A DNA stretch of 59,992 nucleotides from Waddliaceae bacterium. Its GTDB lineage: Bacteria > Chlamydiota > Chlamydiia > Chlamydiales > SLFE01. The notes below the pieces were generated by a model. The model was not told where the DNA came from, ran no database searches, and saw nothing but the letters and a program-made list of their open reading frames with translations. Below, piece by piece: positions 19,979 through 23,061 of this stretch; position 1 is the first letter of the stretch, and the number at the start of each line of letters is the position of its first letter. The stretch covers positions 1-59,992 of the forward strand of contig CAWAPJ010000016.1 of the NCBI GenBank assembly GCA_963783885.1, written 5' to 3'. A program made the translations under genes and the position numbers.

Positions 19979-21136
19979 ATGAAAGAAACGCAGGAGAAAT
20001 TGAGGCAATCGCTTATTGTCATTATATTGGCATGCTATCTCGCTCCTGTCATACTGTTTACATTATTGACAGCTGGCTCGATGGAGTTAAACAGTCGATG
20101 GTTGCTTTTCTCAAGTAGTTTGCTATTAGGTATTTGTGGAACCATTTTTTTAACTCTTGCCTTGATAAAATGGGAGGGATTTTTTTTGAAGATACCGCAA
20201 ACGGCATCATTGGCGGTAATAGCTGAAAAACTTCCTGCTTCCGTATCAGTAGAAAATCCCCAACAAAATTCATTTTCACTCGAAGAGTTCCAGCTAAGAG
20301 AAAAAGATCTTGTTCGTGAAATTCATGAAATCAAACAGAAGTGGTACAGCAAAAAACAGGACTATGACGAGCTTGAAAAGCAATTGGACAAAGTTAAAAA
20401 TGAAAATACCGCTCTTTTGCAGCATTCTCAGGAGCAGCTAAAGAAAAAAGACCGACTGCTTGCGGAATATGCCCAGACAGTCAATGACTTAAGATCCACA
20501 ATGGAAAATAAACAGGAGCAAATTGAAAAACTTCAGGATTCCATCAACGATTTGAGCTATGATCTGGATACATTGCTCAAGTTATCCGATTTTGATTCTG
20601 TCGAAGAAGCCCAGCAGGAAAACGTTTCGGAAAATGAGACCTGTCCTGTTATTCAGAAAAGTCCGTCCAAGCCTGTTGATGCCCACAGTGCGTCCAATCA
20701 ATTGAAAAAATGCATCAATATGGCTCAAAAATTTACTTCGAGCCAATTCACCACTGCTTCTAGATTTCGAGATGTCATGATCGATAATACTGCTTTGGAT
20801 CAAAGACGTCTTTTCGATTCATTTCGAAGCGAGACGGCCTGTATCGTTGTGATGTATTCCTTAAAAGAGCGGACGATGCTTTTTGCCAATGATATGACAA
20901 AGTCCTGCCTTGGCATCGATCCGGAAAGTTTTGTGCACGATTATATAAACCTAATAGTCCAAGGGGCCGAAGAGTGGAAAAATGCCCTGGCATCCCTTTC
21001 CCAGCATTCTGAGGCACAGCTTCATTTGGTGATGCGTTCAGAGTCGGGTACTGATGTCCTTCTTGAGTGCCGTTTGGGTGTGATACCCACCGGAGTATTC
21101 AAAAATCATGCCGTCGGCATCCTTTATGAAATCTAA
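19979..21136 (+). CDS. Membrane protein with two TM helices, long coiled coil and C-terminal globular domain (CT616-like)
   Basis: Two N-terminal hydrophobic helices and heptad region; location downstream of rpsT recalls the chlamydial arrangement. Confidence 0.65.
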   Translation: MKETQEKLRQSLIVIILACYLAPVILFTLLTAGSMELNSRWLLFSSSLLLGICGTIFLTLALIKWEGFFLKIPQTASLAVIAEKLPASVSVENPQQNSFSLEEFQLREKDLVREIHEIKQKWYSKKQDYDELEKQLDKVKNENTALLQHSQEQLKKKDRLLAEYAQTVNDLRSTMENKQEQIEKLQDSINDLSYDLDTLLKLSDFDSVEEAQQENVSENETCPVIQKSPSKPVDAHSASNQLKKCINMAQKFTSSQFTTASRFRDVMIDNTALDQRRLFDSFRSETACIVVMYSLKERTMLFANDMTKSCLGIDPESFVHDYINLIVQGAEEWKNALASLSQHSEAQLHLVMRSESGTDVLLECRLGVIPTGVFKNHAVGILYEI

Positions 21137-21155: not shown

Positions 21156-21266
21156 CTATAAAATTCTTATAGAAAATTGGGTGAGATTTTTTATCCTGAC
21201 GTTGCGTGGAGATCGAACGTCTAGTCAGGGTAGAATAGATCACTTAATTTTTCTAAGAATTTTATG
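21156..21266. repeat. About 110-nt imperfect palindrome just outside the IS982 left end
   Basis: ATAAAATTCTTATAGAAAATTGGGTGA...ATCCTGAC pairs with GTCAGGGT...TCACTTAATTTTTCTAAGAATTTAT. Confidence 0.6.
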
Positions 21267-21344
21267 GTCCTGAAAAAATAAGGCTTCTTAGTGAAAAATT
21301 TGCAATTTTCTAGGATATCCATTGACCCTGATTGCTACCTAAAC

Positions 21345-21461
21345 TTGTTGTTAAAGTCTTTCGTTGGATTCAGATGCGTAGACTCGATTTGAAGGCAAGG
21401 GTAATCCCTTGCCGATAATCGAGGCTTAGCAGATGAATTCAATGAAAGATTTTAACGACAA
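21345..21461 (+). repeat. 117-nt hairpin directly inside the left TIR
   Basis: 45-nt arms, 36 Watson-Crick plus 4 G.U on the plus strand; apex GGCAAGGG-TAAT-CCCTTGCC. Confidence 0.85.
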
Positions 21462-21502
21462 TAGTCTCTATGATACTTCCTTAGCCAAAAAAAGGGGGCA
21501 TC

Positions 21503-22342
21503 ATGGAAACTTACGCAACAACAGTTTATGTCATCAGCGAAGAAATCCTTCGAATTTTGGGGATTAAAGACGATCCTCAATCTCAAATGTCCAACGCAGA
21601 AGTGATAACTTTTGCTATTTTATCAGCAAAATATGTTTCTTGTAACTATAAAATGTCCAGATATTTATGTAAAAGATTACGATTATTCAGAGCTATTTTA
21701 AGCAATAGCCGGCTAAATCGCCGAATTCATAAAATTCCTTGGATTTGTTGGAACGCCATTTTCCGTTTTTTAGCTCTATTTTTTAAGCAAATAAATAAAG
21801 ATCAGGGTTTTGCTATAGACAGCTTTCCAGTTTCATGTTGTCAGAAAAATAGAATCGATAAACGGAAGGTTTTTCTAGAACGAAGGTATTTAGGTTTCGC
21901 AGCTTCTAAAAAGCGTTACTTTTGCGGCATAAAAGTTCATAGGATTGTGACGAGCGAAGGCAAGCCGGTTGAAGTTCTTTTCAAGCCAGGAGCAGTAAGC
22001 GATGTAAAGGTGCTCTGGGAAATGAAACTGGACATTCCACCAGATTCTAAACTTTATGCAGATGGTGCGTATAATTGCTTTGATTTAGAAGACATCTTGA
22101 AAGAAGAACAAATTACATTGCTTGCAAAACGGGGATGTAAAGCAAACAATAGAGTCCGAACACCAATTGAAGAGAGGGAAATTAGCAGCAAGCGACAGAT
22201 TGTCGAGACGACATTTAGCTGCATAACAAACCTTTTCCAAAGAACTTTTAAGTTCTGCACTGAACAAGGCTTTTTGATAAAAGTATTCTGTGCAATTCTT
22301 GCCTATAGTGTTTCATTTTTATGCAAAGGGGAGCTCAGCTAG
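21503..22342 (+). CDS. IS982-family DDE transposase
   Basis: MSNAEVIT, SRLNRR, IDSFPV, YFCGIKVH, YADGAY, RQIVETTFS (D-D-E intact). Confidence 0.92.
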   Translation: METYATTVYVISEEILRILGIKDDPQSQMSNAEVITFAILSAKYVSCNYKMSRYLCKRLRLFRAILSNSRLNRRIHKIPWICWNAIFRFLALFFKQINKDQGFAIDSFPVSCCQKNRIDKRKVFLERRYLGFAASKKRYFCGIKVHRIVTSEGKPVEVLFKPGAVSDVKVLWEMKLDIPPDSKLYADGAYNCFDLEDILKEEQITLLAKRGCKANNRVRTPIEEREISSKRQIVETTFSCITNLFQRTFKFCTEQGFLIKVFCAILAYSVSFLCKGELS

Positions 22343-22445
22343 AGCTTACACGAGTGCGCCAGATACAACTGTAGCGCCTCGGCAAGGGATTACCCTTGCC
22401 GTAGACGCTACAGTTGTATCTGGCGCACTCGTGTAAGCTCTAGCT
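22337..22445. repeat. 109-nt near-perfect hairpin directly inside the right TIR
   Basis: Perfect 40-bp arms (22337-22376 / 22406-22445); apex GGCAAGGG-ATTA-CCCTTGCC. Confidence 0.95.
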
Positions 22446-22542
22446 AAGGTTTAGGTAGCAATCAGGATCATTGGTAAAAATCGCATGGTTTCAAATAACG
22501 TTACACTGTTTCTTTACGTCAAAGGGACTTTTTCCGGGCAGA

Positions 22543-23061
22543 CTATCTAACCGGATCGTGCTTAAGTTTGTTATACTTGCCATTAATGGTAGGATAGATC
22601 CAGGGGTCGTTGTTTTCACGCATAAGGCGGTCGCACCCTAATAGGTAGCCGTAAAAAAAACCGTATTTTTGAATGGCATCGAGTGTGTATTGAGAGCTGC
22701 TTGGGGTATAGTGGCTTCTGGGTCCGTCTGTTTTGGAAATATTATTTTGATGGAACTTAATCATAACTTCGGCAAGCTTGACCAAAGGGGTTTGTTTTTT
22801 AATCGTAATTTCGGATTTTGGTTTAGCAAGATCCGCATCTTTTCCCCAGGGATTCGCAGCAAGAGAAGTTGTCAGAATGATGAATATAAAGAGAATTTTT
22901 TGCAAAATTCCGGAAAAACCGATTTTTAAGCAATTTTGCCGATCTTTACCATTCGGCACAAATTCACATGCTCCTTGAGAGTAGAGTATTTGTGCCGAAT
23001 GGTAAAGATCGGTGAAAAAGCCAAATAGCTGTCTGCTGGAATTTTGCAATTCTTTCTTCAT
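22543..23061 (-). CDS. YidD-like protein (membrane protein insertion efficiency factor family) with an in-frame palindromic insertion
   Basis: 'IKFHQ..IS..DGPRSHYTPSSSQY...AIQKYG...G.L...DRLMR' is a YidD-like core; ATG directly follows the upstream TAG. Confidence 0.7.
   Translation of the reverse strand: MKKELQNSSRQLFGFFTDLYHSAQILYSQGACEFVPNGKDRQNCLKIGFSGILQKILFIFIILTTSLAANPWGKDADLAKPKSEITIKKQTPLVKLAEVMIKFHQNNISKTDGPRSHYTPSSSQYTLDAIQKYGFFYGYLLGCDRLMRENNDPWIYPTINGKYNKLKHDPVR
22900..23049. mobile_element. Palindromic element inserted in frame in the yidD-like gene
   Basis: Perfect 25-bp inner inverted repeat (22939-22963 / 22988-23012); outer inverted repeat TTGCAAAATTCC; TTGCAA at both ends, 144 bp apart. 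Confidence 0.75.

Follow-up and report, generated by a model that had tools for sequence, protein, structure and literature searches.

Paired subterminal hairpins at the ends of a subgroup of IS982-family insertion sequences in chlamydiae

An IS982-family element with a hairpin inside each tip

The stretch of DNA analysed here (59,992 nucleotides, called the window below) contains a complete insertion sequence of the IS982 family, in which one intact transposase gene lies between two long hairpins placed directly inside the terminal inverted repeats. An earlier note on this DNA had described an IS982 element with two giant hairpins that share an apex; each of these features was found in place, with hairpins of 115-117 nt. 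In order along the window, the features are:

21320..21324, no strand: left target-site duplication CATTG, the same pentamer as at 22469-22473
21325..22468, + strand: complete IS982-family insertion sequence, 1144 bp, with ends ACCCTG...CAGGAT, supported by genome BLAST
21325..21344, + strand: left terminal inverted repeat ACCCTGATTGCTACCTAAAC, with a near-invariant core among 40 aligned ends
21345..21461, + strand (the favoured one): left subterminal hairpin (outer arm L1, apex, inner arm L2), supported by fold, covariation and G·T polarity
21371..21376, + strand: outer-arm CAGATG block, its AGAT nearly invariant in 40 ends, facing the inner block
21394..21413, + strand: left apex, 8-bp stem GGCAAGGG/CCCTTGCC with loop TAAT, 69-70 nt from the tip in relatives
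21430..21435, + strand: inner-arm CAGATG block, with G105 and A107-G111 nearly invariant in 40 aligned ends
21469..21474, + strand: -10-like box TATGAT directly beyond the left hairpin, a putative transposase promoter element
21503..22342, + strand: intact transposase gene, 279 aa, with Pfam PF13612 and NCBIfam NF033520 matches
22334..22448, - strand (the favoured one in normal copies): right subterminal hairpin (R1 22334-22379, apex, R2 22403-22448)
22355..22368, + strand: patch of R1 particular to this copy, rewritten so that it complements R2 exactly, with the tandem G·A mismatch and wobbles destroyed
22381..22400, + strand: right apex, exact reverse complement of the left apex, supported by sequence and pattern count
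22449..22468, - strand: right terminal inverted repeat, with one private change (CAGGAT, against CAGGGT in siblings)
22469..22473, no strand: right target-site duplication CATTG, pairing with the left one

Family membership was judged by 5'-AC repeats with 11-32 identical bp, direct repeats of 2-10 bp and a length of 845-1282 bp. The element has 5'-AC inverted repeats, 5-bp duplications, a length of 1144 bp and a transposase recognized by a curated model, the NCBIfam IS982 equivalog NF033520 (151.9 bits, cut-off 130); the protein also matches Pfam PF13612 (E 7e-15), and a 66%-identical homologue is annotated as an IS982 family transposase. The terminal repeats, ACCCTGATTGCTACCTAAAC at both ends, agree in 19/20 positions in the window copy and in 20/20 in its siblings, and are returned by an inverted-repeat scan as 26 nt at 92%, the target duplication included. 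The IS982 consensus, AC(N)6T(N)5TT (PMC7335449), fits the window repeat save one of the last two T. BLAST of the own genome with the element gave 88 matches, among them about 20 near-full copies at 95-100% identity; the 5-bp target duplications are perfect in 16 of the 17 long genomic copies, and every one is CNNNG. The left junction (21236-21351) is bridged by one contig of run X1, and the sole match in the element's own genus is a decayed fragment in G001.

In the inverted-repeat scan the arms of the left hairpin were 45 nt long and 80% complementary, and those of the right one 46 nt and 96%. Folded as DNA, the left hairpin reaches -37.7 kcal/mol (z -10.2; 0/200 shuffles equal it) and the right one -66.6 kcal/mol (z -19.1), with a stem of 40 uninterrupted bp that includes the transposase stop TAG (22340-22342). 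The two apices are exact reverse complements, over 22 nt if the two flanking bases are counted, and the window has two occurrences of the apex pattern where 0.02 would be expected. No Rfam 15 family matched the hairpins; the hits, to microRNA-precursor models, all stayed below threshold and are of the sort that any long hairpin yields. A terminator scan found no intrinsic terminator at either hairpin or apex, the apex tails being GATAATC and GTAGACG, with no U-tract. Judged from its sequence and position, TATGAT at 21469..21474 is a probable promoter element of the transposase gene, and a TAnn[AT]T box occurs at the equivalent place in 16 of 20 hairpin-bearing relatives; a strict promoter scan did not detect this box, and the promoter and terminator scans in or beside both hairpins gave nothing convincing. 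An apex-spanning TTGAAG-19 nt-GATAAT arrangement was dropped as a general feature, being confined to the left ends of close relatives.

Conservation and covariation of the hairpin ends

Hairpin ends of this kind are common to a clade of IS982-like elements with transposases 43-77% identical. Folding gave a full-span hairpin in 44 of 46 ends from 23 related elements, the exceptions being the right end of L048, where it is absent, and the left end of L047, where an intron splits it; relatives at 43% transposase identity keep both hairpins, with a diverged apex. From the tip inward, the 20-nt inverted repeat is followed by a stem of about 27 bp that covaries, then by a conserved tandem G·A mismatch with wobble-rich pairs beside it, a second variable stem with small loops, and finally the 8-bp apex stem GGCAAGGG/CCCTTGCC with a variable loop. 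In 40 aligned ends three blocks are conserved at both ends, namely the apex stem and two facing AGAT motifs, which form the tandem G·A/A·G mismatch in the DNA fold. In relatives with transposases 52-77% identical the apex keeps a distance of 69-70 nt from the tip, while the arms differ in sequence yet pair, which bears out the earlier proposal that variable stems carry a conserved recognition hairpin. The accompanying statement that the arms are unrelated in sequence holds for their variability between elements, but each arm contains a conserved AGAT block. A strict apex pattern with a 4-nt loop matched 25 of 40 related loci, and several of the others fold into the same apex stem with 5-8-nt loops, the loop length across elements being 4 to 8 nt. 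The proposed genome-wide search for the apex, with a comparison of siblings, gave 53 of 54 matches inside these elements, with no host copies, and hairpins present in relatives.

Covariance analysis found compensatory changes in 44 of 46 pairs. The arms were expected to vary while staying palindromic, and they do: pairing is kept in 92.7% of cells, against 62.8% in shuffles (0/500 reach it) and 39-48% with slid partners; since related elements are not independent, the p-values given below make the case look stronger than it is. Left and right arms within one element are 0.24-0.31 identical, whereas arms compared across elements are 0.45-0.54 (left) and 0.44-0.53 (right) identical; arms are thus more alike across elements than between the two ends of one element, so both hairpins are ancient. 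The covariance model R1 detected such ends in 34 of 150 sampled genomes of the phylum and in 27 of 90 genera, the own genome counted. The two hairpins are a standard, ancient end module of an IS982 subgroup, hosted by environmental chlamydiae and at least one Verrucomicrobiae genome.

Strand polarity

The left hairpin of the window has five G·T and no A·C transition mismatches on the + strand. In 19 left and 19 right ends of kin elements the ratio of G·T to A·C is 76:19 (p 3e-9) and 67:22 (p 2e-6), respectively, or 143:41 overall for the strand with its 5' end at the tip, and this strand is the more stable one in 18/19 left and 19/19 right ends. One left hairpin carries 13 wobbles, and wobbles in such abundance suit RNA at least as well as DNA. 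The favoured strand is the top one at the left end and the bottom one at the right end, where it is antisense to the transposase gene; G·U pairs, earlier ascribed to the coding strand, are there at the left end but on the other strand at the right end. The fold is therefore maintained on one strand only, that with its 5' end at the tip. As the wobbles lie on this strand at both ends, the fold appears to matter in single-stranded form and to be read from outside inward. A cruciform reading was rejected because a cruciform needs both strands and leaves a one-strand polarity without reason. The suggestion of a 5'-3' mRNA pairing switch was also rejected, as the left hairpin is located upstream of the -10-like box and the favoured right strand is antisense to the gene.

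Deletions, solo elements and the perfect right stem

The hairpins have been rearranged repeatedly. Of the right hairpin, hardly anything remains in four of the 17 long copies in this genome, and the tip is missing in one or more of the others; right hairpins were deleted at no fewer than three different junctions, those of C1:98866 and C11:25815 possibly being a common one. The OFTM232 element, without a left hairpin, is found at no fewer than five loci whose flanks differ, and in the related element L047 the apex stem is followed immediately on its 3' side by a group II intron. Eleven solo elements of 156-159 bp (four left-type, five right-type, two hybrid) are short, non-coding and multicopy, carry the parent's repeats and have target duplications, as expected of MITEs; the duplications are perfect 5-bp ones in 6/11, and the other five keep 3-4 of 5 bases. 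They consist of repeat, hairpin and repeat, the second repeat directly adjoining the base of the stem, an arrangement that fold-back priming would produce. The hybrids have only a repeat, outer arm and apex, without any long hairpin, and show target duplications too.

Changes of another kind make the arms more complementary. In C2:83699 eight substitutions in the inner left arm L2 run towards the complement of the outer left arm L1, and a near-apex template-switch variant is present in 5/14 copies. In the window copy alone, R1 was rewritten as the exact complement of R2 by seven substitutions and a 1-nt deletion within 16 nt, as the earlier note supposed when it spoke of recent arm-copying. 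This patch differs from 13 sibling copies and five MITEs; the arms of the window's right hairpin retain three mismatches or gaps, against 11-14 in the other 18 right hairpins of the genome. Compared with X1/X3 contigs, the window differs at 22355, 22356, 22358, 22362, 22363, 22367 and 22368 and by one extra T behind 22366. The patch looks, from its sequence, like a template-switch correction that erased conserved mismatches, and because these are gone, the window's right stem is probably a crippled dead end. It is improbable that the perfect stem is instead an artefact of assembly or polishing. In favour of an artefact, independent short-read contigs from four runs have the imperfect patch of the majority and no other version, and with over 100 nt between the patch and unique flank, short reads are unable to tie it to the locus. 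In these contigs, however, about 20 copies are collapsed together and rare variants disappear, which makes them uninformative on this point. The window copy also bears other private or subfamily changes, hence it was resolved separately in the assembly, similar events affected other copies, the other hairpin and the opposite arm direction, and the patch is a clean 16 nt with no fold-back chimera. Template-switch corrections, hairpin deletions and MITEs are visible in this genome as side effects of quasi-palindromic ends; on sequence grounds, the template switches, the right-hairpin deletions and the L047 intron site indicate that the hairpins form in vivo as DNA.

Possible function of the hairpins

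We infer that the module works as a folded single-stranded nucleic acid met by something entering from outside. Our preferred reading, held tentatively and as possible rather than probable, is that the hairpins are a strand-specific accessory transposition signal in folded ssDNA. In this proposal the non-transferred strand beside the inverted repeat would be unwound or displaced and would fold into the hairpin, on the occasion of a fork entering the element or of a copy-out step, a scenario borrowed from other families. The folded hairpin might then be read by the transposase or by host priming machinery, in the latter case perhaps as single-strand origins of rolling-circle plasmids are. A role in transposition is preferred to one in gene expression because the hairpins are placed two-fold symmetrically, the right module is conserved at least as well as the left, the left hairpin is upstream of the probable promoter, and the apex motif has no host copies (53/54 in elements). 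The signal would be helpful and not indispensable. At least some transposition can do without the module: OFTM232 multiplied without its left hairpin, the hybrid MITEs carry target duplications though they have no long hairpin, and C1:98866 and C11:25815 lack the right one.

The same polarity is compatible with an effect on RNA. Inward transcripts could fold into the hairpin and be cleaved (e.g., by RNase III) or stopped, so that outside transcription would neither drive the transposase at the left end nor make antisense RNA at the right; several insertion sequences are known to be protected against external transcription. This insulator, the main rival of the preferred reading, is unlikely on balance, with an appreciable chance of being right. 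The favoured strand at each end is the RNA of an inward transcript, up to 13 pairs per hairpin are G·U-compatible, RNA-parameter stabilities are similar across elements, and dispensability for transposition is what an insulator would allow. The left hairpin has the inverted repeat on one side and the conserved -10-like box on the other, and would therefore be present in read-through RNA alone. However, no U-tract follows apex or hairpin and the scan finds no terminator there, and a generic dsRNA target leaves unexplained the near-invariant AGAT and apex blocks, which are absent from the host genome. The right module is as conserved as the left, though a block of antisense read-through should matter less, and a hairpin inside the inverted repeat cannot shield the repeat itself.

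Two further explanations give the fold no function. If the AGAT and apex blocks were bound only as dsDNA by the transposase or a host protein, then arm complementarity would be a by-product of fold-back origin and recurrent homogenisation by template switching; we give this little credence. Conserved blocks at fixed tip distances at both ends, template switches that are frequent relative to point changes in the genome, and the mobilisation of hybrid MITEs with only repeat, outer arm and apex all speak for it. Against it stand the wobble polarity, alike relative to the tip at both ends (143:41) and unexpected for duplex recognition, the apex loop of 4 to 8 nt, which would shift half-site spacing for a dimer on duplex DNA, and the 92.7% pairing over about 46 pairs despite deep divergence. 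That the hairpins are selfish or neutral, self-renewing quasi-palindromes that hitch-hike with no role for the element, is least credible of all. Self-correction events were observed, and elements missing one or other hairpin still multiplied; yet both modules survive in relatives with as little as 43% transposase identity although the hairpins are prone to deletion, and self-correction would erase the conserved mismatches, which persist. Frequent template switching without selection could keep the arms complementary but not explain conserved mismatches or polarity.

A more far-reaching form of the preferred transposition reading is that the ends of a DDE subgroup are read as folded ssDNA, with the hairpin recruiting the transposase or priming complementary-strand synthesis; in this specific form it is rather doubtful. 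To our knowledge, HUH elements, integron attC sites and plasmid single-strand origins are so far the only cases of such a structure-dependent mode. If true, folded-ssDNA ends would tie IS982-type transposition to replication or a copy-out step. More generally, covarying strand-specific hairpins predict a single-stranded stage, as DNA or RNA, in the life of a DDE element, in a family relevant to endosymbiont genome decay and the activation of resistance genes. Natural mutants for comparison already exist (left-hairpin-less, right-hairpin-less, perfected stems and hybrid MITEs), and a single sequence here displays mutation by template switching, the deletion of palindromes and the birth of MITEs together. 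The covariance model locates such ends and MITEs in chlamydial genomes, where they break assemblies.

Comparison with known systems

The element shares with the IS982 family a DDE transposase of the equivalog model, ends that start with 5'-AC, inverted repeats of some 20 bp, short duplications of the target and a length that falls inside the range of the family. The 2020 review of the family lists 70 members in its Table 1, with a mean length of 996 bp, its Parachlamydia members being 952-1023 bp long with 3' tails of about 20 bp; none of the 70 has long non-coding stretches at both ends, and the main text mentions no palindrome, MITE or stem, and a hairpin for frameshifting only (PMC7335449). 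The earlier note knew of no such architecture for IS982, and the review's text and table agree. A literature search found no prior description of such ends, and an ISfinder entry with them is possible; as far as that search reached, a long conserved hairpin inside each tip is a design not described for the family.

Correia/NEMIS and ERIC elements are palindromic MITEs processed as RNA hairpins. The solo elements resemble MITECca01 of Cardinium, an IS982-derived MITE of about 240 bp for which the available part of the source describes no hairpin (PMC9769881), in being short, repeat-bounded and non-coding, with target duplications and an IS982-family parent; as far as that part goes, they differ in that the body is exactly one parental subterminal hairpin. 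Quasipalindrome-associated template switching produces a cluster of changes that perfects an imperfect inverted repeat in one step (PMC7202029, PMC8794818). The window's right stem would be the same in kind, here on a mobile-element end and with conserved mismatches removed.

Subterminal hairpins of the IS200/IS605 family (IS608) are read single-stranded, with non-canonical pairs that matter (PMC3201880, PMC5027513). The element shares with IS608 hairpins just inside the ends, non-canonical pairs and the single-stranded reading proposed here. IS200/IS605 hairpins are short and on the same strand at both ends, and are served by an HUH/Y1 enzyme with no inverted repeats or target duplication, whereas the present ones are about 117 nt long, on opposite strands and inside inverted repeats, with a DDE enzyme. 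The DDE enzyme, inverted repeats and target duplications place the element outside IS200/IS605, and the one Y1 gene in the genome (C10:76977-77339) is unlinked to the 50-odd hairpins.

Integron attC sites and REP/RAYT sequences, too, are imperfect hairpins that combine conserved features with a variable sequence; they are read single-stranded. REP/RAYT systems were defined by palindromes of 20-40 nt with a GTAG/CGTC tag, hundreds of copies and a RAYT gene; the present hairpins measure 115-117 nt, lack the tag and occur only inside IS982 repeats. An attC site would be marked by an integron integrase in a cassette context and by R''-L''/L'-R' boxes with extrahelical bases. Such a site is disfavoured by the context, since the hairpins lie inside an insertion sequence beside its repeats, with no cassette or integron around them and with other sizes and motifs. 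The earlier suggestion of REP or attC membership is therefore disfavoured, the hairpins being always within IS982 repeats, with 5-bp duplications and a DDE transposase. Single-strand origins of the ssoA type and single-strand initiation signals are long, imperfect, strand- and orientation-specific hairpins with conserved blocks and variable arms, and are dispensable though helpful; a single-strand origin is defined by converting ssDNA into dsDNA in an orientation-dependent manner. They are found on plasmids or phages and have other conserved motifs than the IS982 hairpins. The likeness in strand-specific long hairpin, conserved blocks and dispensability would be one of possible working, not of membership.

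The element and its hairpins

The element under study is an intact insertion sequence (IS) of the IS982 family, and its ORF matches both the curated IS982 transposase model NF033520 (151.9 bits, cut-off 130) and Pfam PF13612. The following features were located in the window:

21325-22468, + strand: intact insertion sequence with CATTG on either side as a 5-bp duplication
both ends of the element: terminal inverted repeats, 20 nt each
21503-22342: transposase ORF, the sole ORF of the element, 279 aa
21345-21461: left hairpin, 117 nt, directly inside the left repeat
22334-22448: right hairpin, 115 nt, directly inside the right repeat

Folded as ssDNA, the left and right hairpins reach -37.7 and -66.6 kcal/mol, respectively, and none of 200 shuffles was as good. 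The left tip (21394-21413) is the exact reverse complement of the right one (22381-22400), the apex pattern occurring twice in the window versus 0.02 times expected, and the right stem consists of 40 pairs without interruption, stop codon included. The earlier note had described two such subterminal hairpins, and its coordinates, folds, inverted tips and 40-pair right stem were borne out in all particulars. The insertion site is intergenic, between a 403-aa ORF ending at 21136 and a 172-aa ORF (22543-23061, - strand), the C-terminal part of which resembles, by eye, the membrane-insertion factor YidD.

Copies within the genome and the origin of the perfect stem

A BLAST search with the element against its own genome (2.16 Mb, 46 contigs) gave 88 matches, including some 20 near-full-length ones of 95-100% identity. 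Pairing of 83 termini yielded 17 long elements, 16 with perfect 5-bp duplications, all CNNNG. The apex motif (up to two mismatches) occurs 54 times, in 53 cases flanked by the element's arms. The earlier note had tied its reading to hairpins in other genomic copies and further occurrences of the apex, and both were found: sibling copies also carry both hairpins, which are therefore no accident of the window's locus. Two nested insertions were seen, a right-type miniature element (MITE) within the leader of an IS copy, at CTTAG (G000:C35:2683-2998), and another element end that breaks the inner left arm of a copy on contig C19 (G000:C19:57991-58128).

The perfect right stem is an accident private to the window's locus. 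Thirteen sibling IS copies and 5 solo elements have, in the inner right arm (R1), a 16-nt stretch that is not Watson-Crick complementary to the outer arm (R2); arm mismatches or gaps number 11-14 in 18 of 19 right hairpins, compared with 3 in the window. Relative to its siblings, the window's R1 carries seven substitutions and a 1-nt deletion, all of which bring it into exact complementarity with R2. Such a pattern is the hallmark of quasipalindrome template switching, described as an established mutational route (PMC7202029; PMC8794818). The "recent arm-copying" proposed in the earlier note thus corresponds to an R1 patch rewritten in the window's copy alone. Elsewhere in the genome, the copy at C2:83699 has eight substitutions in its inner left arm, all towards the outer-arm complement (6 left-hairpin mismatches vs 11-14 in the other 25), and a near-apex R2 variant, the exact complement of R1, is present in 5 of 14 copies. 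In normal right hairpins, wobbles and a G·A pair in fact give the 16-nt "mismatched" patch good pairing on the bottom strand, and it is exactly these that the window's "correction" took away. Explaining the perfect stem as an assembly artefact is considered improbable; public short-read contigs contain the majority (imperfect) form only and, as copies are collapsed in them, are neutral on the window's variant.

The genome also contains 11 short elements, which are MITEs; nine consist of a repeat, one hairpin and a second repeat:

left-hairpin MITEs: n = 4
right-hairpin MITEs: n = 5
hybrid MITEs: n = 2, outer left arm, apex and outer right arm

Their duplications are perfect in six and match at 3-4 of 5 bases in the other five. 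In the single-hairpin MITEs, the stem base meets the second repeat exactly and the palindrome continues into the repeats. They might have been formed by fold-back of a nascent strand primed on its own hairpin, a route favoured because the exact stem-base junction arose twice, which is unexpected for random internal deletion. The right hairpin is deletion-prone, being nearly wholly lost in four long copies at no fewer than three different junctions; a further copy (G000:C11:23258-24351) is missing the 51-nt tip of this hairpin. Apparently the same 51-nt skip was noticed in a contig of run X2, an independent salt-marsh metagenome (window 22354-22406).

Relatives and spread

Transposase homologues of 55-77% identity are common on IS-sized metagenome contigs, and one, from a Chlamydiales MAG, is named IS982 family transposase. 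Forty-six metagenome and 44 genome loci were fetched, the latter from Chlamydiae, Chlamydiales or Parachlamydiales MAGs, some unclassified MAGs and one Verrucomicrobiae MAG. A hairpin of about 116 nt starts right behind the repeat at 44 of 46 ends (23 elements). Two ends deviate: L048, an element of 1034 bp, has no hairpin on the right, and in L047 an insertion splits the left one. In every element where an apex was found, it is 69-70 nt away from the tip, the outer end. In L069 and L070, only 43% identical, both hairpins are kept and the diverged apex retains an AGGG...CCCT core; neither hairpin is present in L099 (Parachlamydiaceae bacterium HS-T3). A covariance model of the ends matched at least 34 of 150 sampled genomes of the phylum and at least 27 of 90 genera, own genome included, and none of the 26 genomes of 1.0-1.2 Mb in family f35. 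Facing pairs of end modules, 320-410 bp apart in other chlamydial genomes (G091:C27:42000-42348, G091:C21:22887-23295, G158:C1:187775-188097 and G139:C103:6779-7106), are probably two-hairpin MITEs without transposase. The transposase gene of L057 contains another, different short element (919-1261) that has a variant repeat (ACCCGACTTGCTACC...) and an apex-like stem, likewise 69 nt from its tip.

Anatomy, covariation and strand polarity of the end module

Twenty left and 20 right ends were aligned, all read from the tip inward. Common to them are the repeat, an outer AGAT block (CAGATG or CAGATAC), the apex with its flanks (CGAAG-GCAAGGG ... CCCTTGCC-GA) and an inner AGAT block; the arms and the loop are variable. 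In the fold, the AGAT blocks stand opposite each other and form four Watson-Crick pairs around a tandem G·A/A·G mismatch, beside which there is a run of pairs, often G·U(T). RNAalifold predicted 46 pairs, 44 with compensatory double changes. Paired cells amount to 92.7% of 1837, versus 62.8% in shuffles (0 of 500 reach the observed value) and 39-48% with slid partners, and double-change cells number 581 versus 185 (controlled count). Left and right arms within one element are no more similar than by chance (identity 0.24-0.31), whereas between elements left arms resemble left (0.45-0.54) and right resemble right (0.44-0.53); both hairpins are therefore older than the radiation of the clade. 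The apex loops differ widely between elements, despite being identical at both ends in 7-8 of 18 elements (identity 0.61 within vs 0.43 between elements; end alignment A2, columns 84-91), and in L107 even a stem mismatch is repeated at both ends. Such matching suggests that the two ends exchange sequence or pair with each other.

The insertion in L047 (272-1037) is an ORF-less group II intron of about 766 nt, on the favoured strand (Rfam RF02001, 92.5 bits; RF00029, 47.8 bits); its insertion point falls precisely where the left apex stem (CCCTTGCC) ends and the inner arm (GAAAATC...) starts. Class C group II introns insert right behind DNA stem-loops, and this site would be independent evidence for folding of the apex in vivo.

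In stem transitions, G·T on one strand equals A·C on the other. Polarity was scored in 19 left and 19 right ends. The window was left out because it duplicates L044, as were two near-duplicates of L091 (L058 and L072); L048 contributed only its left end and L047 only its right. G·T is found on the strand with its 5' end at the tip at ratios of 76:19 on the left (p 3e-9) and 67:22 on the right (p 2e-6), p-values that overstate independence because the elements are related. The same strand is the more stable one in 18 of 19 left and all 19 right ends; the direction is consistent. One-strand polarity rules out selection on a cruciform and, for the right hairpin, selection on the transposase mRNA. 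It is compatible with any agent that comes into the element from its flanks. For RNA polymerase, the favoured polarity is that of the inward transcript and of the non-template strand; for a replication fork, the favoured strand serves as lagging-strand template at whichever end the fork reaches first. Strand displacement starting at a flank nick is also compatible. DDE enzymes are established to leave a 3'-OH on the element's tips, a chemistry by which the favoured strand is, at either end, the non-transferred one. It is highly probable that the perfect stem is a private template-switch event and that the element represents an IS982 subgroup with a conserved, strand-specific, folded end module.

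Function of the hairpins

The hairpin module is not strictly needed. Hybrid MITEs are without any long hairpin, L048 has none on the right, and an element of MAG OFTM232, present at five or more loci with differing flanks, has an identical repeat and the first 9 nt of the outer left arm followed by the leader, with the left hairpin absent and the right one kept. Its ends are:

left ends: L102, L104, L105, L113, L125
right ends: L103, L109, L110, L131

That the hairpins have no function is nevertheless very unlikely: they are kept over deep divergence though easily lost, and their conserved mismatches survive self-correction, which argues for selection on still-active lineages. It is proposed, tentatively, that they may serve as an accessory folded-ssDNA signal on the non-transferred or displaced strand, which would be read by the transposase or by host priming machinery, as in plasmid single-strand origins. 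Such a signal best accounts for why the arrangement is two-fold symmetric, both ends are equally conserved, the sequence blocks have no counterpart in the host and the module is dispensable. An RNA insulator with read-through transcripts as its target, a somewhat more doubtful reading, is the best account of the abundant wobbles and of the position upstream of the promoter. As to the latter, 16 of 20 hairpin-bearing relatives have a TAnn[AT]T box 7-9 nt inward of the left-hairpin base, about 29-36 nt upstream of the start codon. Downstream of this box, the Shine-Dalgarno sequence is paired in a small hairpin with a complement upstream of it, an arrangement suggesting that the native transposase mRNA starts downstream of the big left hairpin. 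A strict promoter scan did not call this box. It is improbable that the modules are duplex binding sites, with palindromy as a by-product. The own genome also has a single Y1 (IS200/RAYT-type) transposase gene (G000:C10:76977-77339), about 4 kb from a left-type MITE; no link between this gene and the hairpins was seen.

Comparison with known systems

The IS982 family comprised 70 members of 845-1282 bp in a 2020 review, in the available text of which the words palindrome, MITE and stem are absent and hairpin appears only for frameshifting (PMC7335449). An IS982-derived MITE of about 240 bp is known from Cardinium, and no hairpin is mentioned in the accessible part of its description (PMC9769881). 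The earlier note knew of no such subterminal architecture for IS982, and this agrees with the literature, where such ends were not found described, ISfinder entries and the review supplement lying outside this statement. The end module may act in a manner comparable to that of HUH-element subterminal palindromes, attC sites or single-strand origins; however, it is not assigned to any of these classes, and its architecture is a new variant within the IS982 family.
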